A DNA stretch of 38,379 bases from a candidate division FCPU426 bacterium (GCA_030637655.1 DAOWGI010000045.1:1-38379); one strand, 5' to 3'. Shown: positions 1-13,395, numbered from the stretch's first letter. Notes: generated by a model from the sequence alone, not told the origin. A program made the numbers and translations.

Positions 1-42
1 AGATAATAGATATCTTGTTATTAAAAGGATGCTCCACGCGTT

Positions 43-136
43 GTCATCCCGGCAATCATTAAGCCGGGATCCAGTGACTTTAAAGCATTTAAAGATCAAA
101 GCCACTGGATTCCTGCTAAAAACATGCAGGAATGAC
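43..136. repeat. REP-like palindromic element, GTCATCCC...GGAATGAC family (copy A)
   Basis: Inverted ends gtcatcc/ggaatgac with nested hairpins (cccggc/gccggg, atccagtg/cactggat, cctgc/gcagg); related copies at 16745-16822 and 23103-23196. Confidence 0.8.
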
Positions 137-207
137 GATCTCAATAGAGAAGTACTTTCAGTTAAGGATGTTGCAATATGAGTTACAATTTGCACTGTTA
201 CAATTTG

Positions 208-270
208 CATGAGAAAATCATTGACTTAACAGTTAAAAGCGTGAAAATTGAGAAAGAGAAAAACAGGAGT
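208..270 (+). repeat. ~60-nt near-identical copy of 2892-2953 (contains TTGACT; followed by RBS and ATG)
   Basis: catgagaaaatcattgacttaacagttaaaagcgtgaaaattgagaaa vs catgagaaaattattgacttaacagttaaaagcgtggaaattgagaaa. Confidence 0.85.
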
Positions 271-277
271 GAAAAAC

Positions 278-922
278 ATGCCCGCGCCGCAAATTATCCT
301 GGATTTAGTTGATCGTTTTGAGCGCAATGTAGAGGCCTATACATCCGGCCATTACAATGAAACCCAACTCCGCCGGGAATTCCTGGATCCGTTCTTCAAG
401 GCCCTGGGCTGGGATGTGGCCAATGAGCAGGGGCATGCCGAAGCCTACAAGGACGTAATCCACGAAGACGCCATCAAGATAGGAGGAGCTACCAAGGCTC
501 CGGATTATTGTTTCCAAATAGGCGGCACGCGCAAGTTTTTCCTGGAAGCCAAAAAACCCTCGGTTAATCTCAAAGACGACACCAGCCCGGCCTTTCAACT
601 CCGGCGCTATGCCTGGTCTGCCAAGCTGTCGCTTTCCATATTGACGGATTTCGAAGAATTCGCAATCTATGACTGCCGGAGCAAGCCCAACCAGGGAGAT
701 AAACCGAGCATAGCCAGAATACATTATTTTACCTATAAGCAACACGCTGTGCATTGGGATGAAATTGTCGCGATTTTCTCCAAAGACGCGATATTCAAAG
801 GTTCTTTTGACAAATTCGCCGAGGGCAAGGGCAGGCGTGGAACAGCTGCGGTGGATCAAGCCTTTCTGGAGGATATTAGCGAGTGGCGCAAGGATATAGC
901 GCAAAATTTAGTGGGGTGTTAA
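278..922 (+). pseudogene. N-terminal HsdR_N-like PD-(D/E)xK endonuclease domain of a type IIG-like restriction-modification enzyme, 3'-truncated
   Basis: YNETQLRREFLDPFFKALGWDV, PDYCF...FLEAKKP, QLRRYAW, ILTDFEEFAIYD. Ends right after 'VDQAFLEDISEWRKDIAQN', where such enzymes normally continue into the methyltransferase. RBS aggag before ATG 278. Confidence 0.75.
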
Positions 923-923
923 A

Positions 924-1715
924 ATGGATTCCAAGGCAGAAAAAATAAAGAAATTAATTGAAGAAGGTAAGCGTGTTTTGGAAACAAAAAAAACTGGAAC
1001 AGATTGGGGTGGCAATAGTGAATATGTTGATAACGACATATTTGTGAAATGGAAAACCAATACTCTTGCCACTCTCGCTGAATTAAAAGAAAATTACAGT
1101 GATACTGAATATTATGAAAGTTTTAAATCGCAAATGAACATACGTAATGTGGTTGACACAAACCTGAGGATGACGAAAACTGGAATAAGTATATTAGAGG
1201 GATTATTTGAAAAATCATCTGAAGATATTTATCCTAGAGATACTAATAGTTTGAAAAAGGAATTTATAAAAAAAGTATTTATAGTTCATGGTCATGACGA
1301 AGAAATGAAGCAAGCAGTAGCGCGATATTTTGAAAAAGCTGGTTTTGAAGCAATTATCCTTCATGAAAAACCAAATTCAGGACGAACGATTATTGAAAAA
1401 ATTAATGATTATTCTGATGTTCCTTTTGCTGCTGTGATATTATCCCCTGATGATGTTGCGTATTCGGGAAAAGATAAAAAATATAGAGCTCGCCAAAATG
1501 TAATATTTGAGCTTGGGTTTTTCATTGGTAAATTAGGGAGAGAAAATGTTTTTCCCATATATAAAAACGATAGCAATATTGAATTGCCGTCTGATTACGA
1601 TGGCGTCATCTATATTCCGTATGACAAGTCTAGTAATGATTGGAAAGTTAAATTGTGCCAAGAACTTAAAGCATGCGATTGCGGTGTTGACATGGACAAA
1701 ATATTTTTAAATTGA
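924..1715 (+). CDS. TIR-like domain nucleotide-binding protein (CAP12/Pycsar-effector-type TIR)
   Basis: KKVFIVHGHD, IILHEKPNSGRTIIEK, LSPDD, RARQNVIFELGFFIGKLGR, ELPSD motifs. Confidence 0.85.
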   Translation: MDSKAEKIKKLIEEGKRVLETKKTGTDWGGNSEYVDNDIFVKWKTNTLATLAELKENYSDTEYYESFKSQMNIRNVVDTNLRMTKTGISILEGLFEKSSEDIYPRDTNSLKKEFIKKVFIVHGHDEEMKQAVARYFEKAGFEAIILHEKPNSGRTIIEKINDYSDVPFAAVILSPDDVAYSGKDKKYRARQNVIFELGFFIGKLGRENVFPIYKNDSNIELPSDYDGVIYIPYDKSSNDWKVKLCQELKACDCGVDMDKIFLN

Positions 1716-1755
1716 GTGTAATGTAATAATATCTGAAATTCAGGGAGAAAGAAGA

Positions 1756-2397
1756 ATGCCGTCAGCAAAGGATACTTTTGACCGTACAATGAAACGCGCT
1801 TTCACGCAGATCGAGTTGTACAAACGGCTTTCGAATGTTAAATTCAAGAAAGAGCCTAAAAAAATTCCGAAGAAAGACTTATCAGAACTTGTAAGAGCTG
1901 CTCTTGTTCTTGGGATTTCCGCTTTTGATGCTTATTTCACCAATAAGTTTGTTGAGAAACTCATCCCTTATCTGCGGAAGCATGGACCAACAGATGGGAT
2001 GGTTAAGATATTTGAACAGGCTGGTTTAGATACACGTACTGCCCTTGAACTGATCCCAAAGGACCGAAATGAAAGACCATACCGAAGGCTGCGTACACTT
2101 GTTGACCAGCATCTTGAACGCTATGTGACACAGAAATTTAAGGTTGTCGATGAGTTGTTCTGTGTCATGGGGCTGAAGAACCTTTCAAGGAATGCTGAAA
2201 AAAAAGCAGGTAGAAAGAAACTCCAACGTAGTATAGAGATTGCTGTGGACCGTCGTCACGCTGTAGTACATAATGGCGATCTCAATAGTCATGGCAATCT
2301 TTGTAACATCGATTACAGGGAAATAAAAAAACGATTTGATGAGGTAGTGTTATTTGTTGAGAAATGTGATGAGATAATTAATTCGCGCGTCACGTGA
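1756..2397 (+). CDS. HEPN-domain protein (putative RNase)
   Basis: N-terminal RAALVLGISAFDAYF helix and C-terminal RxxxxH motif RHAVVH. Confidence 0.7.
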   Translation: MPSAKDTFDRTMKRAFTQIELYKRLSNVKFKKEPKKIPKKDLSELVRAALVLGISAFDAYFTNKFVEKLIPYLRKHGPTDGMVKIFEQAGLDTRTALELIPKDRNERPYRRLRTLVDQHLERYVTQKFKVVDELFCVMGLKNLSRNAEKKAGRKKLQRSIEIAVDRRHAVVHNGDLNSHGNLCNIDYREIKKRFDEVVLFVEKCDEIINSRVT

Positions 2398-2570
2398 GTT
2401 TTTATTGTGTGATATGGGACACACATGGTTTTAGAAAGAGGCGTAAGACTGTTATCTAGGATGTTCATTTTCGCCAAGGTCTTTAATAAAGGTTTGTAAA
2501 AAGAACAAATTGTATTTCCAAGAAATGTTCAAAGGCAAAATCGACAATTAATTAACTGGGTGAGAATACC

Positions 2571-3299
2571 ATGAAAATCCTCATTGCCGAAGACAGACAA
2601 CCCCTCCAGGAAGCGATCCGCTTTTTGATGGATGATTGGGGTTATCAAGCGGATATTGTTGACAATGGCCTGGAGGCTGTGGGGAAGGCATTTGAGGAGA
2701 AATATGATCTTTGCCTGATGGATTTGAATATGCCAATTATGGACGGTTGGGAAGCGGCAAGGATTATTCGTAATAAAATAAGGTTTGTTCCTACTTTAGC
2801 GTTGACTGCCAATTCCCATTTTAGAGGGCAACAAAATTTGGATACTGAATTTGATGATTATATGGAAAAACCATATGATTATAGAGTATTACATGAGAAA
2901 ATTATTGACTTAACAGTTAAAAGCGTGGAAATTGAGAAAAGAAAAACCAGGATTGCAGTTACAAAGGAGATGCCGATGAATCCGGAACATTTAAAAGAAT
3001 TACGAGAACTGGATAAAAAAGGGTTAAGCATTCTTTATATGCGGGACAAAGGAACAAAATTTATTGTGCATAAAAATGTACAAAATAAGATCTCACATGA
3101 ATTTCTGAAGGAAGGCAATGAAATTGTGGGATTTATTGATCATTCAGAAGATGAACCAGGACTTTGTCATCTATACAAATACAATCTTAATACCAGTGTG
3201 AAATGTCTTCTGCCAGAAGTACTGAAAGAAAAGATCACGCAGGAAAATGAGGAAATGGAAAAATACGACAAGCCGATTTTTAAGAAAGAAACGGATTGA
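2571..3299 (+). CDS. Response regulator receiver domain fused to an unrecognised C-terminal domain
   Basis: ILIAED, DLCLMDLNMPIMDG, ALTA, DDYMEKP receiver motifs; C-terminal ~110 aa not recognised. Confidence 0.8.
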   Translation: MKILIAEDRQPLQEAIRFLMDDWGYQADIVDNGLEAVGKAFEEKYDLCLMDLNMPIMDGWEAARIIRNKIRFVPTLALTANSHFRGQQNLDTEFDDYMEKPYDYRVLHEKIIDLTVKSVEIEKRKTRIAVTKEMPMNPEHLKELRELDKKGLSILYMRDKGTKFIVHKNVQNKISHEFLKEGNEIVGFIDHSEDEPGLCHLYKYNLNTSVKCLLPEVLKEKITQENEEMEKYDKPIFKKETD

Positions 3300-3415
3300 T
3301 GTTCAATCTGAGAGGTGTCAACAACTAAAGGTATACGAATAGTGTATCCAGCGGGTTAAAGTTACGTGTTTATGGACTGAGTACAAAACAAAATCAGACC
3401 TGCCGGGTGGTTTGG

Positions 3416-3600
3416 TGATTGGTGCCGGAGTTCGAATGTTCGGATAAAAAAATGAAAGGAAAGGGTGAAAACTCTATCTAATTTGTTGGGGGACGGTGTC
3501 TTGCGCCAGGCAAAGTCTGGACAAAGGGAATGAGTAGGGGTTCAAAATTTTGAACCCCTACCTTGCATTGAAATCTAGCGGGCAACCGAACCCGGACCGG
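3416..3600 (+). repeat. Long intergenic repeat, copy 1
   Basis: tgattggtgccggagttcgaatgttcggataaaaaaatgaaagg...ggggacggtgtcttgcgccaggcaaagtctggac...gtaggggttcaaaattttgaacccctac(3534-3561)...ctagcgggcaacc. Confidence 0.95.
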
Positions 3601-3693
3601 CAAAGCAGGCCAGATATTGAGTTCCGAAATCACGAATGCGGCGAGGGGGCGGGGCCGACCGCGTTGAAATGAATTGAATGAGGTATTGGCAGC

Positions 3694-5046
3694 ATGAAAA
3701 AAGAAGAGTTGAAATTGTTGCGTGAAGAAGGCGAGGGGTATCTTGTCGAGTTTAAGGAAAAGACAGCCAATATTGATAAAGAAATGGTTGCCTTTGCTAA
3801 CGGGTCAGGCGGTAAAATTCTGTTGGGTATTTCTGATAATGGCAATATAAAAGGGATTAAGATAACCAACAAATTAAAATCCCAAATACAGGATATTGCC
3901 AATAATTGTGAACCAGCTATAAAAATTATGATGGAAGAATTTGATGACATTCTTGTTGTTCATGTGCGTTCCGGTGAAGATAAACCTTATAGCTGTTCGC
4001 AAGGATTTTATACCCGAATAGGGCCGAATGCGCAAAAAATGAAACGGAATCAGATTATAGAGTATTTTCAGTCCGAAGGAAAAGTGCGGTTTGATGAATT
4101 AATTAATCTCAGCTTTGATTATAAAAAGGATTTTGATAAGGACAAATTCGAAAAGTTCCTATCTATCGCCGGTATATCAAAGGTTTTAAAAACACCTGCT
4201 GTTTTATGCAATCTTGGGGTTGCTGAAAAACAGGAAGGCAAGACAATCTTTAATAATACCGGTATTCTATTTTTTGCGAAGAACCTAAATGCCTGCTATC
4301 TTCATACCACCGTTACCTGTGCTCTTTATAAAGGCGTCAGTAAAGCAAATGTCCTTGACCGCAAGGATTTTAATGAAGATATTGTAAGCAATGTTGATCA
4401 TGCAATGCTGTTTTTAAAACAACATATCCCTGTAAGATACGAGTTCGACGGTTCGCCGAAACGAAAAGAAATCGCCGAAGTTCCTTTTGGAGCCTTGCGC
4501 GAAGCGGTTATAAATGCTGTTGTGCATCGTGATTATTTTCAAAAAGGCGCCAATGTTATGGTAGAGATATTTGATGATCGCATAGAGATATCCAGTCCGG
4601 GCGGATTGGTAAAAGGATTGTTGGAAAAAGATTTTGGAAAAAAGAGTGTTTTGCGAAATGCCAATATTGCCAATCTTTTTCAGCGCATGGGATATATTGA
4701 AAAAATGGGCACAGGGATTATCAGGATGCGGGAGCTTATGGCAAAAGCTCATCTGCAAGCAATTGATTTTCAGTTCACATTATTTGTGACAGCAGTTTTT
4801 AAAAGAGAGTATAAGAAGATAAAAACCGCCCGAAAAACTTCGGTGAAAACTTCGGTGAAAACTTCGGTGAAAATAGTAGAGTTGCTTAATAAAGAATCAC
4901 ATATAACAATACCGGAAATGGCGGAAAAACTAAGAAAAAGTACCAGGGCCATTGAAATGGAAATTAACAAAGTAAAAAAAGCAGGATTTATTAAACGAAT
5001 CGGTCATGATAAAGGCGGGCATTGGAAAGTGAATAAAATAAAATAA
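3694..5046 (+). CDS. Schlafen/AlbA_2 + HATPase_c_4 + winged HTH protein (often annotated 'RecG-like/transcriptional regulator')
   Basis: GEGYLVEFKE, AFANGSGGKILLGISD, ALREAVINAVVHRDY, FDDRIEISSPGGL, LRNANIA, IEKMGTG, KRIGHDKGGHW. Confidence 0.88.
   Translation: MKKEELKLLREEGEGYLVEFKEKTANIDKEMVAFANGSGGKILLGISDNGNIKGIKITNKLKSQIQDIANNCEPAIKIMMEEFDDILVVHVRSGEDKPYSCSQGFYTRIGPNAQKMKRNQIIEYFQSEGKVRFDELINLSFDYKKDFDKDKFEKFLSIAGISKVLKTPAVLCNLGVAEKQEGKTIFNNTGILFFAKNLNACYLHTTVTCALYKGVSKANVLDRKDFNEDIVSNVDHAMLFLKQHIPVRYEFDGSPKRKEIAEVPFGALREAVINAVVHRDYFQKGANVMVEIFDDRIEISSPGGLVKGLLEKDFGKKSVLRNANIANLFQRMGYIEKMGTGIIRMRELMAKAHLQAIDFQFTLFVTAVFKREYKKIKTARKTSVKTSVKTSVKIVELLNKESHITIPEMAEKLRKSTRAIEMEINKVKKAGFIKRIGHDKGGHWKVNKIK
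4834..4873 (+). repeat. In-frame 12-nt tandem repeat (aaaacttcggtg)x3 encoding KTSV linker
   Basis: Three exact copies directly visible. Confidence 0.9.
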
Positions 5047-5081
5047 TCGGGGATGTGACTTTGGGGACGTAGGGGATTGGG

Positions 5082-5306
5082 GATTGATGCCGGAGTTCGA
5101 ATGTTCGGATAAAAAAATAAAAGGAAAAGGTGAAAACTCTGTCTAATTTGTTGGGGGACGGTGTCTTACGCCAGGCAAAGTCTGGACAAAGGGGATGAGT
5201 AGGGGTTCAAAATTTTGAACCCCTACCTTGTATTAAAACCTAGCGGGCAACCAATCCCGTCCGGAATCAGGGACGTAATGAAAGCGCCGGGATAAACCGG
5301 CATAGA
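5082..5306 (+). repeat. Long intergenic repeat, copy 2
   Basis: Near-identical to copy 1; palindrome at 5199-5226; extends to ccggaatcagggacgtaatgaaagcg...ggcataga. Confidence 0.95.
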
Positions 5307-5377
5307 GCAGGTGAAAATTGCCGGGGATTTCCTGATGATTTTAACCAAAAATATTACATATCGGGAGCCATCTGGTC

Positions 5378-5836
5378 ATGGGTATTACTGTCAAACTGGA
5401 TGACATCATAAATGGAATGGAATTTCAATCCGACGAATCCACCTCATATCTCAACACGAAAACAGGTGAGATGGCGACAATAGATAATCTGGAATTCAGC
5501 GCGGCTGAAAACAATGAGCCAATCGAAAATTTTTCTGAGTGGGAGCATGAAAACCTAAGAGTAGCGAAGGAAATATTGCAAACCGATGATTACATTTCCT
5601 TACCCTCAAAGTTTGACATTCACGAGTACGAGATCATGGAAAGATTCTGTCTATCCATAGCCGATGATGAGCTAAGGGATACTATCTCTAGAGCACTAAA
5701 GGGAAGCGGAGCTTTTCGAAGATTCAAAGACAATATTCACCAATACAATATTGCGGACGAGTGGTATAAGTACCGAGACGAGGCAATAAAACAAATTGCT
5801 ATCGACTGGTGCAAAGAGAATGACATATTGAATTGA
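5378..5836 (+). CDS. UPF0158 family protein
   Basis: YLNTKTGE, LPSKFDIHEYEIMERF, GSGAFRRFKD, WYKYRD, AIDWCKEN. Confidence 0.85.
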   Translation: MGITVKLDDIINGMEFQSDESTSYLNTKTGEMATIDNLEFSAAENNEPIENFSEWEHENLRVAKEILQTDDYISLPSKFDIHEYEIMERFCLSIADDELRDTISRALKGSGAFRRFKDNIHQYNIADEWYKYRDEAIKQIAIDWCKENDILN

Positions 5837-5993
5837 AATATAGGGGACGCGTGATGTGGTATTCCGACCGGGAATTCGGGATATAGATGAATTTGGACAG
5901 CAGTGATTAACAGAATCGGCTGTCTGGGATTGAGAAGGCGTAAGCGGCTATTAACAGCGCCATGACCAAGCAGCGGGCTTAGTGGAGTGAATA

Positions 5994-6458
5994 ATGAGTT
6001 TTAAAAAAGTTCGAATTCCTGCGCGCGACGGCATGCCTTCTTTATGCATTGTGTGTAAAGGGAGCTTGCACGCCAAGAGTGAATATTATTGCAGTCAGTC
6101 ATGTGTCGGAATTTACAGGCCCAACGCGGAAGAGACAAAACCTCAATTTTTATCGAAATGGAAACTAAGAAAAAAAAAGGCATTGCAGGATCCGCTGGCA
6201 TGTGCGCGTCATAAAACCAGAAAGAAGACGCGGGATTTATTAAAAAGAGGCGTCCTGAAAAAGAAACCCTGTATTGTCTGCGGCGACAGGGAAGTTATAG
6301 CGCATCATGAAGACTATAATAATCCGTATAAAATTATTTGGATATGTGATAAACACCACAAAGAGTATCATGAGGGCAAAAGAGCGTTGTTTAATAATAA
6401 GCTGAAATGGGATCCGAAAAGACTAACTATGATAAAATCAGCAAAGATATTCAGTTAA
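5994..6458 (+). CDS. Zinc-binding HNH-like protein
   Basis: CIVC...YCSQSC N-terminal Zn motif; PCIVCG...AHHEDY...WICDKHHKEYH resembles phage HNH-like proteins. Confidence 0.6.
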   Translation: MSFKKVRIPARDGMPSLCIVCKGSLHAKSEYYCSQSCVGIYRPNAEETKPQFLSKWKLRKKKALQDPLACARHKTRKKTRDLLKRGVLKKKPCIVCGDREVIAHHEDYNNPYKIIWICDKHHKEYHEGKRALFNNKLKWDPKRLTMIKSAKIFS

Positions 6459-6473
6459 TAAGAGAGGCCAAAC

Positions 6474-7508
6474 ATGAAAATTTCAAAAATTTTAACAAAA
6501 ACCCGGCAAGGCTTGTTAAAGGCCGCTGGAGCATTCGAGGCGGCGAAGCCGTGGGAAAAGATTTATGACAGCCAGATATTTGGAGTGGAAAATCCGCAGA
6601 CCAGGGAGATCGGCTGGTGCGTTATTATAGGGGAATTGGGAGAGGTTCGCGGCTTGAACGCCTATCGTGGCCCGGAAGGATTGAAAGCTTTGCAAATGAT
6701 GATGGAAGAAAACCTGGAAATATATAATGATGAATTTATGGCCGGACAAAATCTGCTCTCCGTGACTTACGTTAATAAAAGCGAATTGGACGCCCAAGAC
6801 TGGAAGTGGCTGGCTGATTGTCCGAATCCATGGCCCCGGGGACTTTATCCCCAATTTCGCAGTTTTCGGCCAGGCTATTATCCCTGGTATTTAGATCAGG
6901 ATGAATCCGATTGGATGACCCGGATCCTCGAACAGACCTTGAAATATTTTCCGGCTTTATTGGAATCAACAGAAGAAGTAAAAGATTTATTTTCATCCCA
7001 AGTTCCAGTATTAAGAAAAAGCGGGAAGCCGGAGGAAAACGCATGGACCATGGATTTTACACGGCCGGAAAAACCCGTTGACAAGGAAGAACCTTCGCTG
7101 GATTTAGACGAATTCACGGTCCACAAACTGGGAAAGATAAATTTGGCTTTAGAATCAACCTGGGAGTTGGATTATTTTTATACATGGGCAAGCATTCAAG
7201 ATGCGGATAAACCCTATCACATGCGCGTAGCTCTGGTGGCAGATCACGAAAACGGATTAATTTTGGGTCAGGAAGTAATTTCAGTAGGTCAAGACGCCGA
7301 CGCTTGTTTGCTAAAAAACCTCATCAATACGATACAAAGCCGGAAATGCCGGCCGGGGTTTGTTTTGGTAAAAAGGCGGGAAACGTTAAACCGTTTGAAT
7401 GTCTTGTTGGATTCCATTGGTATACGGCTGGAATTACGGAATCAGCTGCCTGCGGTTAAAGAAGCGCAAGAGTCTTTAAACAGTGCTATGGCCGGGGCTC
7501 CGGCGTAA
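6474..7508 (+). CDS. Conserved hypothetical protein (DUF7309/DUF6930-like)
   Basis: Long ORF with RBS; motifs KPWEKIYDSQIFGVENP, GEVRGLNAYRG, PQFRSFRPGYYPW. Confidence 0.65.
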   Translation: MKISKILTKTRQGLLKAAGAFEAAKPWEKIYDSQIFGVENPQTREIGWCVIIGELGEVRGLNAYRGPEGLKALQMMMEENLEIYNDEFMAGQNLLSVTYVNKSELDAQDWKWLADCPNPWPRGLYPQFRSFRPGYYPWYLDQDESDWMTRILEQTLKYFPALLESTEEVKDLFSSQVPVLRKSGKPEENAWTMDFTRPEKPVDKEEPSLDLDEFTVHKLGKINLALESTWELDYFYTWASIQDADKPYHMRVALVADHENGLILGQEVISVGQDADACLLKNLINTIQSRKCRPGFVLVKRRETLNRLNVLLDSIGIRLELRNQLPAVKEAQESLNSAMAGAPA

Positions 7509-7553
7509 TTTGATTTAACCTAATAGGTTGCCTTATCCTGATTGTGGCGGTAA

Positions 7554-7579
7554 AAGGTGCCAGGCACGAATAAGAGTCA
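7554..7579 (+). repeat. 26-nt direct repeat aaggtgccaggcacgaataagagtca (identical at 9935-9960); core ggtgccaggcac also at 7728, variant at 10872
   Basis: Direct comparison; core gtgcc-a-ggcac is palindromic. Confidence 0.85.
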
Positions 7580-7625
7580 GGAAAATCAAATTCATTCAAG
7601 AAAGCATAAAATAAAAATTAAGTCA

Positions 7626-7692
7626 GTGATTGGTGCCGGAGTTCGAATGTTCGGATAAAAAAATGAAAGGAAAAGGCAGTCTTCCTGTCTAA
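7626..7692 (+). repeat. Long intergenic repeat, copy 3 (5' part only)
   Basis: gtgattggtgccggagttcgaatgttcggataaaaaaatgaaaggaaaagg, then diverges. Confidence 0.9.
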
Positions 7693-7972
7693 ACTAATAA
7701 CACCACTAAAAGGAGGAAGAGGTTACTGGTGCCAGGCACTTTACCTTTACTAATCTCTGGATAAGCGTTAGCGTATATGCTATAAATAATAAACGTCTCC
7801 ATTTCTACCCAAGCTGCTGGAAAATGTCATACTCGGACGGCCCTGCTGGCCGGCTTCAATCTTGAAAATATTATGAAAACACCTACCGGTCGTATGGCTG
7901 CCAGACAAGCAACTGCGGGCATGGATAATAATCCATGCAGACCGTATGAGTATTAATATTCATAAGGGTGAT

Positions 7973-8716
7973 ATGACCAGTATCTCCATCCACTTCTATG
8001 GTAATCTAAACGACTTCCTGCCAGCTGTGCGCAGGCGCAAACAGATTGTCACTCAAGTAAACGGCCAGCCGGCTGTCAAGGACACTATAGAAGCCCTGGG
8101 CGTGCCTCATACTGAGGTGGATGTCATCCTGGTAAACAACCAGTCCGTTGATTTCACCTACCAACTGCATTCAAAGGATAAGGTAAAAGTCTATCCAAAG
8201 AGAATCGAGCTGCCAGCCAGTCAGCATAAACATCTTTACCCTAAAATCCCCCGCTTTCCAAAGTTTGTACTAGACTGTCATTTAGGAAAACTTGCTCGCT
8301 ATTTACGCTTGCTGGGTTTTGATACGGTTTACAAAAAACATTTCCCAGATGAGAATGTGGTCGAAATTGGCGTTCAGGAAAAGCGCATTATCCTGACCCG
8401 TGACCGGGGCATATTAAAGCACAAAACAGTCAAACTCGGCTACTGCCTGAGGTCTACAGTATCTTTAAGCCAAGTTCAGGAAATCATGGATCATTATAAT
8501 CTCCGCACCCGCATCCGTCCCTTCTGCAGATGCCTGGAATGCAACGGTCGTGTCCTAAGAGTTGCCAAGAAAACAATCGAAGCCCAATTACCTCCGAAAA
8601 CCAAGGAATATTATCAAAACTTCTATCAATGCAGAGATTGTAAACGAATTTACTGGCAGGGTTCGCATTATGGGAAACTTTTAAAGCTGGTAAATCGATT
8701 TAAGAAAAATAAATGA
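7973..8716 (+). CDS. Mut7-C RNase with N-terminal ubiquitin-like domain (PIN + Zn ribbon)
   Basis: VKDTIEALGVPHTEVDVILVN, FVLDCHLGKLARYLRLLGFD, ILTRD, RCLECNG, CRDCKRIYWQGSHY; ATG 7973 chosen by RBS (ORF open from 7946). Confidence 0.9.
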   Translation: MTSISIHFYGNLNDFLPAVRRRKQIVTQVNGQPAVKDTIEALGVPHTEVDVILVNNQSVDFTYQLHSKDKVKVYPKRIELPASQHKHLYPKIPRFPKFVLDCHLGKLARYLRLLGFDTVYKKHFPDENVVEIGVQEKRIILTRDRGILKHKTVKLGYCLRSTVSLSQVQEIMDHYNLRTRIRPFCRCLECNGRVLRVAKKTIEAQLPPKTKEYYQNFYQCRDCKRIYWQGSHYGKLLKLVNRFKKNK

Positions 8717-8917
8717 TTGGTGCCGGAGTTCGAATGTTCGGATAAAAAAATGAAAGGAAAAGGTGAAAACTCTGTCTAATTTGTTGGGGGACGGAGTCTT
8801 GCGCCAGGCAAAATCTGGACAAAGGGAATGAGTAGGGGTTCAAAATTTTGAACCCCTACCTTGTATTGAAACCTAGCGGGCAACCAATGCCGTCCGGAAT
8901 CAGGGAGGTAGTGAAAG
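8714..8917 (+). repeat. Long intergenic repeat, copy 4
   Basis: Starts at the Mut7-C TGA stop codon; palindrome at 8832-8859. Confidence 0.95.
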
Positions 8918-9098
8918 TAGCAGGGGACGTGTTTGATTTAAGAACTTTAGCTTTAAAAACCGTACGTTCATGAGATTGAGAACGTGAGAGAGAACGGAGT
9001 TTACTTAGCAACTTAAGGAAATAATTACAAAAAATGGAATGAAAAAGACGGAGACTGTAACGGCCACCGAGACACTTGTCCCCGAGAAAAAAGTCCGC

Positions 9099-9461
9099 TT
9101 AAGGAAAGAAATTCAAATCAAATTTTGTAGAAACAAAGTTTAACTTTTTATCAAGACTCCAGACCGGACTGTTGCTTAACCGGGCAGAAGCTAAAAGATG
9201 CATATCAATAAAACCAAGGCCTAATCCCATTAAATTATTCATTTCAATGAATTGAAGCACCTCGGCGTTTTCCGCTACAGCAGCCTGGGGGATTGCTTGC
9301 AACAAGGAAATAATTTCTTTGCGGTTTTTTATTGTGCCGCAGGACAGCTCGCCGATGATCAGGGGATGGCAAAGCACCTCGCCGTGATAAAGTAAAGTTT
9401 TTAGGGAAAAATTATCAGCGCGAAGATGAGACACCCATACGGAAGTATCAACCAATACCAT
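9099..9461 (-). CDS. vapC: VapC PIN-domain toxin
   Basis: MVLVDTSVW, HPLIIGELSCG, GFIDMHLLASA, WSLDKKL. Confidence 0.9.
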   Translation of the reverse strand: MVLVDTSVWVSHLRADNFSLKTLLYHGEVLCHPLIIGELSCGTIKNRKEIISLLQAIPQAAVAENAEVLQFIEMNNLMGLGLGFIDMHLLASARLSNSPVWSLDKKLNFVSTKFDLNFFP

Positions 9462-9467
9462 GCTTGG

Positions 9468-9662
9468 CTAATGCCTCAACCTTCTGCGGGGAATCATGCG
9501 AAGATCCTTTTCGGTTCCGCCAAGCTGCGCCAGGCGTTTGCCGCTTTCGCGGGCAATAAGTGCTTCCAGGCCGAGTTTTATTAAGGAAGTTTTTTCCTTT
9601 ACCCCGGTTAATTTTATGGCTTGCTGAAGCAAGCCGTCCTCGATATTTAAAGTTGTTCGCAT
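9468..9662 (-). CDS. vapB: VapB antitoxin (RHH-type)
   Basis: MRTTLNIEDGLL...EKTSLIKLGLEALIARES; AGGAGG before ATG 9662; directly upstream of vapC. Confidence 0.88.
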   Translation of the reverse strand: MRTTLNIEDGLLQQAIKLTGVKEKTSLIKLGLEALIARESGKRLAQLGGTEKDLRMIPRRRLRH

Positions 9663-9694
9663 AAGTGATATCCTCCTGTATGTTATTTCATATG

Positions 9695-9727
9695 TATTAA
9701 TATGCACTGTTTTTACATATTTGTCAA
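9695..9727 (-). promoter_or_regulatory. Putative sigma70 promoter of vapBC
   Basis: TTGACA on minus strand (9722-9727), ~17 nt spacer, then catatt/tattaat. Confidence 0.5.
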
Positions 9728-9845
9728 CCAAGTGATTGGGATACGGATACGGGACGTTGGTGATTTAGTGACTTAAGAAAAAAGTATAGAGTAGGGGGAC
9801 GTAGTGAAAGCGCAGGCCAGCAGGTATAATCTCAGGAATTACCAG

Positions 9846-9935
9846 TGCGGCGGCGCGGGGCCGACCGTGTTGAAATGAATTGAAAGAATCGGTTCTGATA
9901 AAGGCGGGCATTGGGAAGTGAAGAGATTAAAATGA
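9846..9935 (+). pseudogene. Collapsed remnant of an AlbA-HATPase-HTH cassette
   Basis: 9846-9884 matches 3637-3678 (upstream of that gene); 9885-9935 encodes RIGSDKGGHWEVKRLK* matching its C-terminus RIGHDKGGHWKVNKIK*. Confidence 0.8.
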
Positions 9936-10118
9936 AGGTGCCAGGCACGAATAAGAGTCATTTAATATGGGGAGCTGAAAAAGAGACGTTGGCAGTATAA
10001 CCGGATGTCGGATAAAGCGCTGTGCTTGCTGCTTGTCACACAAAAAAACCTGAAATAATTTGCAATTATTTCCTCTTTAATCAGTCTAATACCATTAGAA
10101 AAAAACAGGGAGGAATAT

Positions 10119-10638
10119 ATGGCAAAAAACAGTATTTTATCGTTGGAACTCATCCGGGAAAAAATATAGGGGACAGAGAGTGATGTTGGATAGGGATCTG
10201 GCAATATTTTATGGTGTTACAACTAAAGTATTTAACCAGGCTGTAAAAAGAAACAAAGAAAGATTCCCCGAGGATTTTATGTTCCAAGTAACACAAGTTG
10301 AAAATGATTCTTTAAGGTCACAATTTGTGACCTTAAAGAGAGGACAACATCGTAAATATCCGCCTTACGCATTTACTGAAAATGGTGTGGCTATGCTGTC
10401 ATCCTGCTTAAGAAGCAAATCAGCGATTCAAATTAATATTCAAATCATGCGGACCTTTACAAAAATCCGTGAATTGATGAGTATGCATAGAGATATTTAT
10501 AACCGGATGAATAAATTAGAGATGAAACAATTGAGCCAGTCCAAAGAAATCATAAATATCAATCAGGTAATCCAGGAAATGTTGAATTTGCCGATTACCT
10601 TAAAACGAAAATCAAAACCCATAGGATTCAAGCGATAG
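10119..10638 (+). pseudogene. ORF6N (KilA-N-like) DNA-binding protein, frameshifted near the 5' end
   Basis: RBS ggagg + ATG 10119 gives MAKNSILSLELIREKI* (TAG 10167); another frame continues RGQRVMLDRDLAIFYGV...NQAVKRNKERFPEDFMFQ...PYAFTENGVAMLSS. Confidence 0.8.
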
Positions 10639-10661
10639 CGAGAATGACGGTAGGGTGAGTA

Positions 10662-10814
10662 GGGGACGGAGTCTTGCGCCAGGCAAAATCTGGACAAAGG
10701 GAATGAGTAGGGGTTCAAAATTTTGAACCCCTACCTTGTATTGAAACCTAGCGGGCAACCAATGCCGTCCGGAATCAGGGACGTAGTGAAAGCGACGGGA
10801 CAAATCGGCATAGA
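10662..10814 (+). repeat. Long intergenic repeat, copy 5 (3' part, begins exactly at GGGGAC)
   Basis: ggggacggagtcttgcgccaggc...palindrome 10707-10734...ccggaatcagggacgtagtgaaagcg...ggcataga. Confidence 0.95.
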
Positions 10815-10890
10815 AGAACAAGGGATGAGGCTTCGACTGAGCTCAGCTCAGTGATTTCAGCCATACATGAAGGTGACCGGCACTTTGATA

Positions 10891-10952
10891 CGGGTGTATG
10901 CGGGTGGAAATACGGTTTGACTTATGGGTGGATTCGGGTGACAATATGGGTG
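10891..10952 (+). promoter_or_regulatory. Putative fic promoter/operator with five GGGTG direct repeats
   Basis: GGGTG at 10892, 10902, 10926, 10936, 10948 around TTGACT (10917) and gacaat (10940). Confidence 0.55.
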
Positions 10953-10965
10953 AAAGGATATCTAT

Positions 10966-12015
10966 ATGCTGAAAACCGGCACCATTCAAGTCACATCTGA
11001 GCTTCTGGCGCTGATCTCCGAGATCGATGAATTCAAAGGCGCCTGGCGTTCCTTTGGTGCGTTGGCGCCCGAGCGTCTGAACGCCTTGCGCCTCGTCGCT
11101 ACAGTCGAGAGCATTGGCTCATCAACCCGCATTGAGGGCAGCAAGCTGACAGATCGCGAGGTTGAGCAGCTGCTTGCTGATCTTAAAATAGCATCCTTTG
11201 CCACCCGCGACGAACAGGAGGTTGTCGGCTATGCCAAGGTAATGGACCAGGTGTTCAACTCCTGGCAGGACATCCCAATCACGGAAAACCATATCCGGCA
11301 ATTGCACCGCGACCTGCTTGCCTACAGCGAGAAGGATGAACGGCATCGCGGTAGCTACAAGACGGCCTCAAACAGCGTGGCTGCTTTCGACACAGCTGGA
11401 GCGCAGATCGGAATCGTATTCGAGACAGCAACCCCTTTTGACACACCACGTCTCATGGGCGAGTTGACCGCTTGGTTGCATGAGGTGCGCGAGACACGCC
11501 GACTACATCCTTTGCTGATGATAGCTGTGTTTATTGTCGTGTTCTTGGAAATCCATCCCTTCCAGGATGGCAACGGTCGCTTGAGCCGGATTCTAACCAC
11601 GCTGTTGTTGTTGCAGGCCAACTATGCTTACGTCCCTTACAGCTCGCTTGAGAGCGTCATTGAGGATAACAAGGAAGGTTATTATCTCGCGCTCAGACAG
11701 ACGCAAGGCACGATCCGCACCGAGGCGCCGAACTGGCAGCCCTGGATCGGCTTTTTCCTTCGCGCGGTGCAAAAACAAAAGCGGTTCCTGGCTGTCAAGG
11801 TCGAGCGGGAAAAACTGGTACTGGCCACTTTGCCCGAGCTGGCCGTGGAAACTCTGGATTATGCCCGCGACCATGGCCGCGTGACGATAGGTAACATGGT
11901 CCGCAAAAGCGGCGCCAGCCGCAACACGATGAAAGAGCATTTTCGTAATCTGGTGAAGAAGAAATACCTTATCCAGCATGGCGTCGGCAAAGGCACGTGG
12001 TATGCCCTGCCATGA
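10966..12015 (+). CDS. Fic family protein with N-terminal inhibitory motif and C-terminal wHTH
   Basis: HPFQDGNGRLSR Fic motif; STRIEG autoinhibitory motif; HGVGKGTWY wing. Confidence 0.92.
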   Translation: MLKTGTIQVTSELLALISEIDEFKGAWRSFGALAPERLNALRLVATVESIGSSTRIEGSKLTDREVEQLLADLKIASFATRDEQEVVGYAKVMDQVFNSWQDIPITENHIRQLHRDLLAYSEKDERHRGSYKTASNSVAAFDTAGAQIGIVFETATPFDTPRLMGELTAWLHEVRETRRLHPLLMIAVFIVVFLEIHPFQDGNGRLSRILTTLLLLQANYAYVPYSSLESVIEDNKEGYYLALRQTQGTIRTEAPNWQPWIGFFLRAVQKQKRFLAVKVEREKLVLATLPELAVETLDYARDHGRVTIGNMVRKSGASRNTMKEHFRNLVKKKYLIQHGVGKGTWYALP

Positions 12016-12132
12016 TCGAATTTGAGGGATGAAGATGCGCCCGTTTATGAGATTGAAGTCGTGGTTAAAATAACAAGTTAACGAATTTGGGGACGCGTGA
12101 TGAAGATTGCTCCTAGCCTGAATTTGACATGA

Positions 12133-13395
12133 TTGCCTAAAAATTGCTTTTTACCACTGGAACTAAAAAGGAGATTTTATTTGTATTCTTCACATTCAAA
12201 GGTTATAAAAATATGTATCGCTGCTCTGGTGTTGTCTTCTTTGCTTCCCGGGTGTTCGCGTTTTTACCTGACTATACGGCCGGATACTGTTGCTGTGCCG
12301 CCGGTTAAATATGAACGGAAAAAATCCGGAAATATACGAGTGGCTTTAGTGAAAAGCGCGAAACGAGTAGGTATTTCCTCGTCTCGCGAGGTTAAGATAT
12401 ATGACATGCGAACCAAAAAAATAATTGATCGTATGCGACTCACCGCAGATACGCAGGTGACTTTGCGGGATGGTCGGATTATGCTTGCAGGGAAAACCTT
12501 GCCGGCCCCGCGTATTCGCCTGGTGCCGGCTAAAAATGAATACCTGAGTGTGCGCGGCAAACGCTACCGCGGACAGATTGAGGTCCTGATCAACCAAGAG
12601 TCCGGTGGTTTGTTGGCAGTGAATTATATTCCATTAGAGCAGTATCTCTTTGGCGTGGTTCCCAATGAAATGATTTCGACCTGGCCTGAACAAGCCCTGC
12701 AAGCCCAAGCAGTAGCTGCCCGAACCTTTGCTCTGTATAAAATGAGCGGATGCGCAACCAAGGAGTATGATCTGGATGCTTCGGTTAATAGTCAAGTGTA
12801 CGGTGGCTTGGATTCTGAGAAGGAAAGCACTTCTCGAGCCGTGCTTCAGACTCAAGGTGTAGTGGCCATGAGTAATGGAAAATATATTGCTGCTTTTTAC
12901 CATTCCAATTGCGGAGGACATACTGCTAATGTAAAAGATGTTTGGGGTTCGCAGCTGCGCTATTTGGCCGGCAGTTTATGTGGATTTTGTGATAATGGAC
13001 CGCATTGTCGTTGGGAACATCAGCTGACCAAACAGGAATTGGAAACGCGGCTGAAAAAACGGAAGGTTATCCAGCACAAGATCCAACGTTTGGAATTAAT
13101 CGGTCGTGATTCCGGTGGGCGAATTCAGATGATTCGGATTCAGCATACGGCCGGACATAAAGACATAAAAGCTGCGGCTTTTCGGATGCTGATCGGTCCG
13201 GATATTATCCGAAGCACAAAGTTCTACGTCCATTCGAATGGTAAAAATATTATCTTTAAGGGAAAAGGTTGGGGTCATGGCGTTGGTTTATGTCAGGAAG
13301 GCGCCTACGGTATGGCTCGCAGCGGATACCACTACCGGGATATTCTCAGGCATTATTATCCGGGTGTTGATATCCATAAAATAAGCATTCCATAA
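12133..13395 (+). CDS. SpoIID/LytB-domain protein (putative lipoprotein lytic transglycosylase); start codon uncertain
   Basis: YRGQIEV, LEQYLFGVVPNEM, QAQAVAARTFA, SQVYGG, YHSNCGG, GKGWGHGVGLCQEGA, ILRHYYPG; LPGC lipobox-like. Confidence 0.9.
   Translation: MPKNCFLPLELKRRFYLYSSHSKVIKICIAALVLSSLLPGCSRFYLTIRPDTVAVPPVKYERKKSGNIRVALVKSAKRVGISSSREVKIYDMRTKKIIDRMRLTADTQVTLRDGRIMLAGKTLPAPRIRLVPAKNEYLSVRGKRYRGQIEVLINQESGGLLAVNYIPLEQYLFGVVPNEMISTWPEQALQAQAVAARTFALYKMSGCATKEYDLDASVNSQVYGGLDSEKESTSRAVLQTQGVVAMSNGKYIAAFYHSNCGGHTANVKDVWGSQLRYLAGSLCGFCDNGPHCRWEHQLTKQELETRLKKRKVIQHKIQRLELIGRDSGGRIQMIRIQHTAGHKDIKAAAFRMLIGPDIIRSTKFYVHSNGKNIIFKGKGWGHGVGLCQEGAYGMARSGYHYRDILRHYYPGVDIHKISIP

Follow-up and report, generated by a model that had tools for sequence, protein, structure and literature searches.

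In a 38,379-nt window from a candidate division FCPU426 bacterium (GCA_030637655.1 DAOWGI010000045.1:1-38379), a hexamer, GG(G/T)G(A/C)C (GGKGMC), recurs in the spacers of an array of 13 accessory genes, and an initial annotation had taken it for the crossover or cleavage core of that array. The window corresponds to contig C96 in a draft genome of 3.28 Mb (G000, 120 contigs; genomes, contigs and loci are labelled G, C and L below), and the array lies within bases 248-12100. Our analysis indicates that, in the DNA homing site of one group II intron lineage, the hexamer is probably the conserved part on the exon side and that the array holds the 3′-truncated debris of these introns. The repeated blocks are derived from introns, the motif keeps its position relative to the intron, and the bases that separate it from the intron co-vary with an intron loop. 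The hexamer itself would be recognised either by a loop resembling exon-binding site 2 (EBS2) or by the intron protein.

The hexamer precedes two related group II introns by 5-6 nt

Two related group II introns, which we named T1 and T2, lie behind the hexamer. Whole T1 is about 800 nt long and has no open reading frame (ORF), and T2 encodes a reverse transcriptase (RT). In same-family genomes and on G000:C81, the 5′ sequence of T1 ran on into matches to RF02005 (group II intron D1-D4-6) of 144-154 bits, and the 22-mer behind the T1 tag occurred in 6 of the 10 same-family genomes searched and in none of 50 others. The block gggacgtagtgaaagcg is the start of T2 and led into RF02005 matches on G000:C80 and G001:C154. 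RF02005, which covers ribozyme domains I-IV, scored 144-169 bits on G000:C81, G002:C24, G003:C222, G001:C111, G001:C154 and L188. The whole T1 on the metagenome contig L188 scored 144.5 bits, RF00029 matched its domains V-VI with 36.9 bits (E 1.2e-4), just short of the gathering score (40), and its 3′ end, read by eye, was ...GGCAAC. The whole T2 on G001:C111 (L024) scored 158.7 bits, and its protein is a 495-aa RT/maturase (TIGR04416, 358 bits with a cut-off of 300). Domain V-like sequence was seen, by eye only, in T2 of L024 and T1 of L192. The latter (G007:C52, about 143-600) is a compact T1 variant without an ORF; it is at least ~460 nt long and has a 28-nt GTAG...CTAC hairpin nearly identical to that in the window.

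The 5′ 28-mer of T2 was used to scan one genome per species, which gave at least 120 loci and, among the matches listed, 115 distinct upstream contexts from Desulfobacterota, Nitrospirota, Bacillota and other groups. In these listed contexts the 28-mer was preceded by (G/A)GGG(A/T)C and then five variable bases (position -11, G 84 and A 22; -10, G 108; -9, G 111; -8, G 107; -7, A 80 and T 23; -6, C 103), and there was no conservation upstream of the hexamer.

GGGAAGGCA is preceded by a domain I loop, and a stretch of six bases in that loop was then compared with the six bases in front of the 28-mer (-6 to -1). Among 42 distinct flank/loop combinations, 5.55 of the 6 positions were paired and 29 combinations were perfect, whereas 1000 permutations of the partners averaged 3.36 and reached at most 4.02. 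Six other registers gave no signal. By its length, register and place, this co-varying pairing is that of intron-binding site 1 with exon-binding site 1 (IBS1-EBS1). The register puts the predicted 5′ splice site after the five variable bases, and the T2 hexamer thus occupies positions -11 to -6 of the 5′ exon.

The T1 hexamer lies at -12 to -7 from the predicted 5′ splice site, and the loop GACUCC can pair with the T1 12-mer GGKGMCGGAGTY. G000 has 16 copies of this 12-mer, modestly above three controls (4, 1 and 9); T1 stands behind 3 of them and unrelated DNA behind 13, with the breakpoint immediately 3′ of the 12-mer. Within a single genome, the tag variant GGGGACTGTCC is followed by an intron at L131 and by none upstream of L108. 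We also tried an intron that starts at the hexamer by seeking complements of 6-7 nt of the flank within the intron; none was found in four of the five copies, and this candidate was rejected.

A different reading of the same arrangement is that the hexamer is the intron's own 5′ terminus and the next five bases pair with a loop within the RNA, so that the tag travels with the intron and needs no pre-existing target. We regard this as unlikely. It would fit the sharp onset of conservation at the hexamer in the 115 listed contexts and the transposase gene that is interrupted in L024, whose uninterrupted homolog in G005 has no GGGAC, but the similarity between L024 and G005 already stops 9 nt before the hexamer and the event is therefore not a clean insertion. 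It would also fit the short tags that are enriched just 5′ of the introns in other genomes (25 at -50 to -11 in the listed T2-class contexts compared to about 9 expected from background bins; a tag within -70 to -12 in 24 of 114 contexts), and the new GGGGWC tags that often directly follow truncated introns there. However, the pairing matches IBS1-EBS1 in register, length and loop position, intron-less tags exist that break exactly at the predicted splice point, and the tag varies more than the adjacent intron bases.

The array holds 5′ fragments of both introns

Placing the parent introns on the array by blastn located bases 1-105/111 of T1 at 3489, 5154, 8787 and 10662, and at 5270, 9795 and 10778 it located T2 starts with lengths from 22 to about 100 nt (Table 1). 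Behind the T2 start at 9795, an internally deleted domain I piece extends to about 9870, as compared by eye with L023. A remnant of an AlbA cassette lies at 9837-9933, in which an upstream leader (like 3628-3681) is fused to the final 55 nt of the gene (like 4990-5044).

The largest repeat of the array is 203 nt long, occurs at 3417, 5082 and 8715 and partially at 7620 and 10662, and consists of two halves. The first half, module A, begins 5-12 nt 5′ of its GGTGCC, and the second half opens with GGGGACGGAGTC TTGCGCCAGG. The observation in the initial annotation that shared blocks begin at the motif was confirmed at 10662, 5843/12089 and 9796/10778; in the C41 copy of the T1 relic at 10662, similarity reaches 11 nt further upstream. 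The T1 relics contain a 28-nt palindrome, GTAGGGGTTCAAAATTTTGAACCCCTAC, which resembles repetitive extragenic palindromes and also has lone copies on other contigs. Since it is found in the T1 of L192 too, it is a feature of the intron subfamily and not a late insertion in the window.

Rfam gave no match in the window at gathering scores, none in the repeat at loose E-values, and no group II match in bases 1-12300 at E up to 5, because the relics are too short. The array has neither domains V-VI nor an RT, and only the first 17-118 nt of the introns aligned. Without a catalytic domain V and an RT, the pieces are 3′-truncated, dead relics. RT fragments do occur at the ends of contigs. A free-standing structured RNA had also been considered for the repeat, which folded no better than shuffles as RNA (z -1.3) and gave z -2.8 as DNA of the opposite strand; this candidate was dropped after the link to introns emerged.

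A separate palindrome marks junctions shared with a sister array

The degenerate hexamer lumps together at least two unrelated things, the intron landing-site tag and a palindrome, GGTGCCNGGCAC, which accounts for GGTGCC at 7556, 7728 and 9937 and for GGTGAC at 10872. Contig C34 of G002 carries a syntenic array in which the restriction gene has its full length (991 aa) and ORF6N and Fic are 89-91% identical to those of the window; between these genes it has AAAAAGGTGCCTGGCACCTTTTT instead of intron debris. The points at which similarity to G002:C34 begins or resumes (Table 1) are 2-7 nt away from the palindromes at 7556, 9937 and 10872. Homologous cargo had been expected to lose similarity at the hexamer, and this was the case for 3 of 22 distinct cross-genome segment ends (within 7 nt), all at the palindrome GGTGMCNGGCAC and all from G002:C34 alone. 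The other 19 lay elsewhere; those of the response regulator, DUF7309, PIN/VapB, the restriction-gene fragment and the G004 Fic gene were near gene ends, not hexamers. As cassette edges or terminators, these palindromes are the stronger candidates.

These junctions bear on the possibility that defence cassettes are assembled and shuffled by site-specific recombination at sites of which the motif forms the core, the introns being secondary squatters. We consider it improbable. Points in its favour are GGTGCCNGGCAC(C) at three G002:C34 junctions and three shared breakpoints, the 31 matches to AGGTGCCNGGCAC over 11 family genomes (8 with at least one) compared to 1 for the reversed control, the enrichment of solo tags, and ~110-nt direct repeats containing GGGACGTGTTTGATTTAAG that flank a cassette in G007:C43. 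The co-orientation of accessory genes, a trait of integrons and of clusters of attC sites lacking integrases (CALINs), is present, with 11 of the 13 genes on the plus strand. On the other hand, no integron integrase was found (TIGR02249, best 85 bits with a cut-off of 265) in G000, which is 91.6% complete; as the window itself begins at a contig end, a recombinase gene could lie upstream of it. Nor was a recurring attC-like hairpin (RYYYAAC...GTTRRRY) seen in a search of the spacers for inverted repeats, in which the 28-nt palindrome was the sole recurring one. The 19 segment ends away from the motif and the 7-14 nt that are all the surroundings of solo GGGGAC tags have in common also speak against a recombination site.

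Tags without introns and junction elements

Several tags in the array have no intron behind them (Table 1). The element GGGACGTGTTTGATTTAAG, which corresponds to window position 8923, lies inside the direct repeats of G007:C43, and some tags therefore belong to junction repeats that are targeted by introns. A 182-aa gene lies between these repeats (L039, 1320-1440 and 2075-2190), which encode its ~10 C-terminal residues and stop codon, and a 51-aa ORF in front of the first repeat has the same residues at its C-terminus.

Hairpin elements with tag-led inverted ends (GGGGACGTTG... or GGTGACGGAGTTAA...) were observed on G000 contigs C25, C39, C47 and C98 (103 nt), C63, C76 and C107 (64 nt) and C57:1648-1701 (54 nt). 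These small elements may serve the introns as natural landing sites or may be intron-derived. Hexamer-led hairpins with 10-nt arms were rejected as a general feature, with 15 in G000 and 41 and 10 for two control patterns.

It is also conceivable, though doubtful, that the junction elements with tags (GGGGAC-N5 sites and GGTGCCNGGCACC palindromes) serve as the joints of an integrase-independent system of defence-gene cassettes in this bacterial family, perhaps with the participation of introns. Head-to-tail, 5′-anchored fragments could then arise by RT template switching or by intron-to-intron recombination that joins gene units, and the fragments would not be passive debris.

The hexamer is enriched in array spacers and strand-specific

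The hexamer coordinates of the initial annotation were correct except for 2416, where only the pentamer GGGAC is present, and its observation that the motif follows cargo stop codons also held, as 7 of the 13 array genes have a hexamer within 75 nt of the stop. In the array spacers (2,828 nt), GGKGMC occurred 20 times in the forward and once in the reverse orientation, a strand ratio of 20:1, compared to a forward mean of 3.66 (sd 1.9, maximum 10) in 1000 dinucleotide-preserving shuffles. In the window's core spacers (2,251 nt) there were 1 forward and 2 reverse matches. When the extra copies of repeats were masked, 12 forward matches were left in 2,091 nt compared to about 2.7 expected. Genome-wide, 27% of GGGGAC fell in non-coding DNA, which makes up 15% of the genome according to a crude ORF map. 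The pattern is thus real and strand-specific. Chance or a composition effect, which the looseness of a motif of four hexamers might suggest together with two GGGGCC matches in internal intron sequence (3651 and 9857) and one match in former coding sequence (10169), is already refuted by the shuffles; the strand ratio and the count that remains after the repeats are collapsed also speak against it.

At 10169 the match falls within the disrupted 5′ end of ORF6N; the G002 ortholog has GGGGAC there, read as codons. In the window ORF6N has lost its first ~20 codons (10120-10180), and the frame of the upstream ATG stops at TAG 10166-10168, where the G002 ortholog (175 aa) reads through.

Gene content of the array

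The array begins with a truncated HSDR_N/MmeI-like restriction gene and encodes a CAP12/Pycsar-type TIR protein, a RiboL-PSP HEPN protein, a response regulator, an AlbA_2/Schlafen protein, UPF0158, an ORF of 154 aa without a Pfam match, DUF7309/DUF6930, Mut7-C, a PIN (vapC-like) protein with VapB on the minus strand, ORF6N and, as the last gene, Fic, which is followed by SpoIID (12133) and QueA. The restriction gene ends after 224 codons, and the window diverges at about 894-909 from orthologs in G002:C34 and G001:C84 that run beyond this point; its 3′ part has been replaced by the array. Just 5′ of the fragment, at 205-271, a 67-nt stretch from within the response-regulator gene (2889-2955) recurs at 88-91% identity, with further copies on C1 and C105. 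Bases 1-200 of the window are another dispersed repeat, found at many G000 contig ends (C1, C9, C54, C72, C106 and about 20 more), and this repeat probably broke the assembly at that point. The AlbA gene contains three tandem in-frame 12-nt units (AAAACTTCGGTG) at 4834-4873. Elsewhere in the genome, L066 (G000:C110) has an Rfam DUF3800-V RNA match (1292-1389, 65 bits) beside a different group II intron (RF01999, 94.6 bits).

Table 1. Coordinates of hexamers, intron relics, repeats, palindromes and tags in the window.
Feature	Position	Strand	Remarks
Truncated restriction gene	248-922		First array gene
Hexamer after AlbA stop	5063	+	17 nt from stop
Hexamer after UPF0158 stop	5843	+	7 nt from stop
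Hexamer after the 6474-7508 gene	7556	+	48 nt from stop
Hexamer after Mut7-C stop	8719	+	3 nt from stop
Inverted hexamer	9078-9083	-	16 nt past stop of minus-strand PIN (vapC-like) gene; no repeat attached
Hexamer after ORF6N stop	10662	+	24 nt from stop
Hexamer after Fic stop	12089	+	74 nt from stop
T1 relic	3489-3606	+	12-nt 5′-exon tag GGGGACGGTGTC and about first 105 nt of ORF-less intron; blastn 74-75% over 118 nt to whole T1 (C81, L020)
T1 relic with tag	5154-5264	+	blastn 74-76% over 111 nt
T1 relic with tag GGGGACGGAGTC	8787-8897	+	blastn 76-77% over 111 nt
T1 relic with tag	10662-10772	+	blastn; similarity to other copies in the window begins exactly at the hexamer
Internal domain I piece	3595-3664	+	Directly 5′ of AlbA gene; contains GGGGCC at 3651; blastn to T2_L023 159-221, 74%
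T2 relic	5270-5316	+	Tag GGGACGTAAT and first ~36 nt of RT-type intron; blastn 91-97% to T2 of L023, C80
Degenerate T2 tag and first 6 intron bases	8903-8919	+	17 nt; repeat family D8, 82%
T2 tag and start	9795-9816	+	blastn 95% over 22 nt
T2 relic	10778-10881	+	Tag and about first 90 nt; blastn 81% over 105 nt to C80, 86% over 70 nt to L023
Module A repeat	3416-3488	+	Opens with GGTGCCGGAGTT (3421), a T1-type tag without intron sequence behind
Module A copy	5082-5153	+	GATGCC variant
Module A copy	7627-7676	+	Cut short
Module A copy	8714-8786	+	First bases overlap Mut7-C stop codon
28-nt GTAG...CTAC palindrome	3534-3561, 5199-5226, 8832-8859, 10707-10734		Inside T1 relics; 100%
Palindrome GGTGCCAGGCAC	7556-7567		Cassette boundary; G002:C34 similarity starts at 7549
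Palindrome GGTGCCAGGCAC	7728-7739		Second copy, in the spacer of the 7556 copy
Palindrome GGTGCCAGGCAC	9937-9948		5′ edge of ORF6N cassette; G002:C34 similarity starts at 9931
Palindrome variant GGTGACCGGCAC	10872-10883		5′ edge of Fic cassette; G002:C34 similarity resumes at 10870
Solo tag GGGGACGTAGG	5063-5073	+	No intron behind
Solo tag GGGGACGCGTGATG	5843-5856	+	
Solo tag GGGGACGCGTGATG	12089-12102	+	Right end of array, 44 nt before SpoIID
Tag-bearing junction element (GGGGACGTGTTTGATTTAAG...)	8922-8974	+	
Solo tag GGGACGTTGGTGATTTAGTGACTTAAG	9752-9778	+	Same kind as the 8922 element

Discussion

We propose that the array spacers were entered by group II introns at sites that carried the hexamer. 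The EBS1 loop of the intron RNA would pair with the last six bases of the 5′ exon, the hexamer would occupy the usual place of IBS2 (-11 to -6 for T2 and -12 to -7 for T1), and the intron would reverse splice into DNA directly after these six bases. T1 and T2 would have landed, in the orientation of the genes, in spacers 3′ of defence and toxin-antitoxin genes and would later have been reduced to their first 17-110 nt, some being copied together with neighbouring DNA. Landing, truncation and copying together would explain why repeats begin at the motif and why the motif trails stop codons. The proposal of a crossover or cleavage core in the initial annotation thus survives in part. The motif does mark junctions, with DNA cut and rejoined 5-6 nt 3′ of it, but the agent would be reverse splicing of a group II intron and not a recombinase of the array.

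Several observations weigh against homing by these introns as we describe it. The predicted 5′ ends of T2 and T1 read GAAAG and UUGCG, not the canonical GUGYG, so that the pair of GUGYG/AY boundaries of group II introns is not seen. Of the 90 loci whose downstream sequence was long enough, just 48 had a readable domain I loop, and these gave the 42 pairs compared. For the hexamer itself, T1 copies with GGUGCC or GGUGUC have the second loop AAAUCACC and the lone GGGGAC copy has AAAUCCCC; this change looks like EBS2-IBS2 compensation, on three sequences only, and L010 has the tag GGAGUC yet the loop GACAAC. A loop that could pair with GGGGA was not found in the T2 class, in which loop 1 reads UCACC, and in a search for a T2 EBS2 with one candidate, A/T at -7 did not co-vary with the GAAAG-NCCC hairpin. 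An empty-site test for the T1 of G002:C49 found no usable ortholog in the family. Finally, about 9 intron-less tags or palindromes stand in ~2.1 kb of non-redundant spacer compared to about 2.7 expected, and since homing needs a tag but makes none, the surplus of solo tags requires a further cause.

If the homing-site explanation is correct, an apparent recombination core becomes an explained feature, in that the motif shows where group II introns have landed, and intron debris can be separated from true cassette edges, which would be the short palindromes. It would also provide a rule for one widespread intron lineage, namely that a target has GGGGAC at a distance of 5-6 bases 5′ of the entry point and then six bases that match EBS1. 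Should this rule hold at the bench, it could aid the annotation of relics in metagenome genomes and the retargeting of introns.

RmInt1 is an example of an endonuclease-less group II intron. According to the available sections of PMC4424553, bacterial introns that lack the endonuclease select their targets by EBS-IBS pairing. T2 resembles them in that its protein stops after the RT/maturase part and the six pre-intron bases co-vary with an intron loop, and differs from them in the near-invariant GGGGAC that stands at the IBS2 position across phyla and for which no matching T2 loop was found. The predicted first bases, GAAAG in T2 and UUGCG in T1, replace the GUGYG of known introns, and introns that splice upstream of GUGYG are noted in the same sections. 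Group IIC introns are described there as recognising a stem-loop and a short IBS1. The introns studied here are like IIC and IIC-attC introns in being inserted downstream of genes and into cassette-boundary elements, and unlike IIC introns in having an IBS1 of 6 bp. An upstream hairpin was sought by eye in three T1 flanks and was possible in C70 and absent from C81 and L009. The GGGGAC exon motif is not mentioned in the available sections of PMC3753933, PMC4424553 and PMC7923331, which does not in itself show its novelty.

Truncated group II introns in cassette arrays rich in toxin-antitoxin genes are already in print. In the available sections of their paper, Sonbol and Siam (2021, PMC7923331) described fragmented group II introns in such arrays (UHB.F1 and H.ha.F1/F2) and reported both IIC and IIB types. 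The array in the window is similar to theirs in that truncated group II introns lie between co-oriented accessory and toxin-antitoxin genes. Their arrays are integrons or CALINs with attC sites, whereas neither an integrase nor an attC-like hairpin was found here, and the relics in the window, compared with those in their arrays, have kept the intron's 5′ end.

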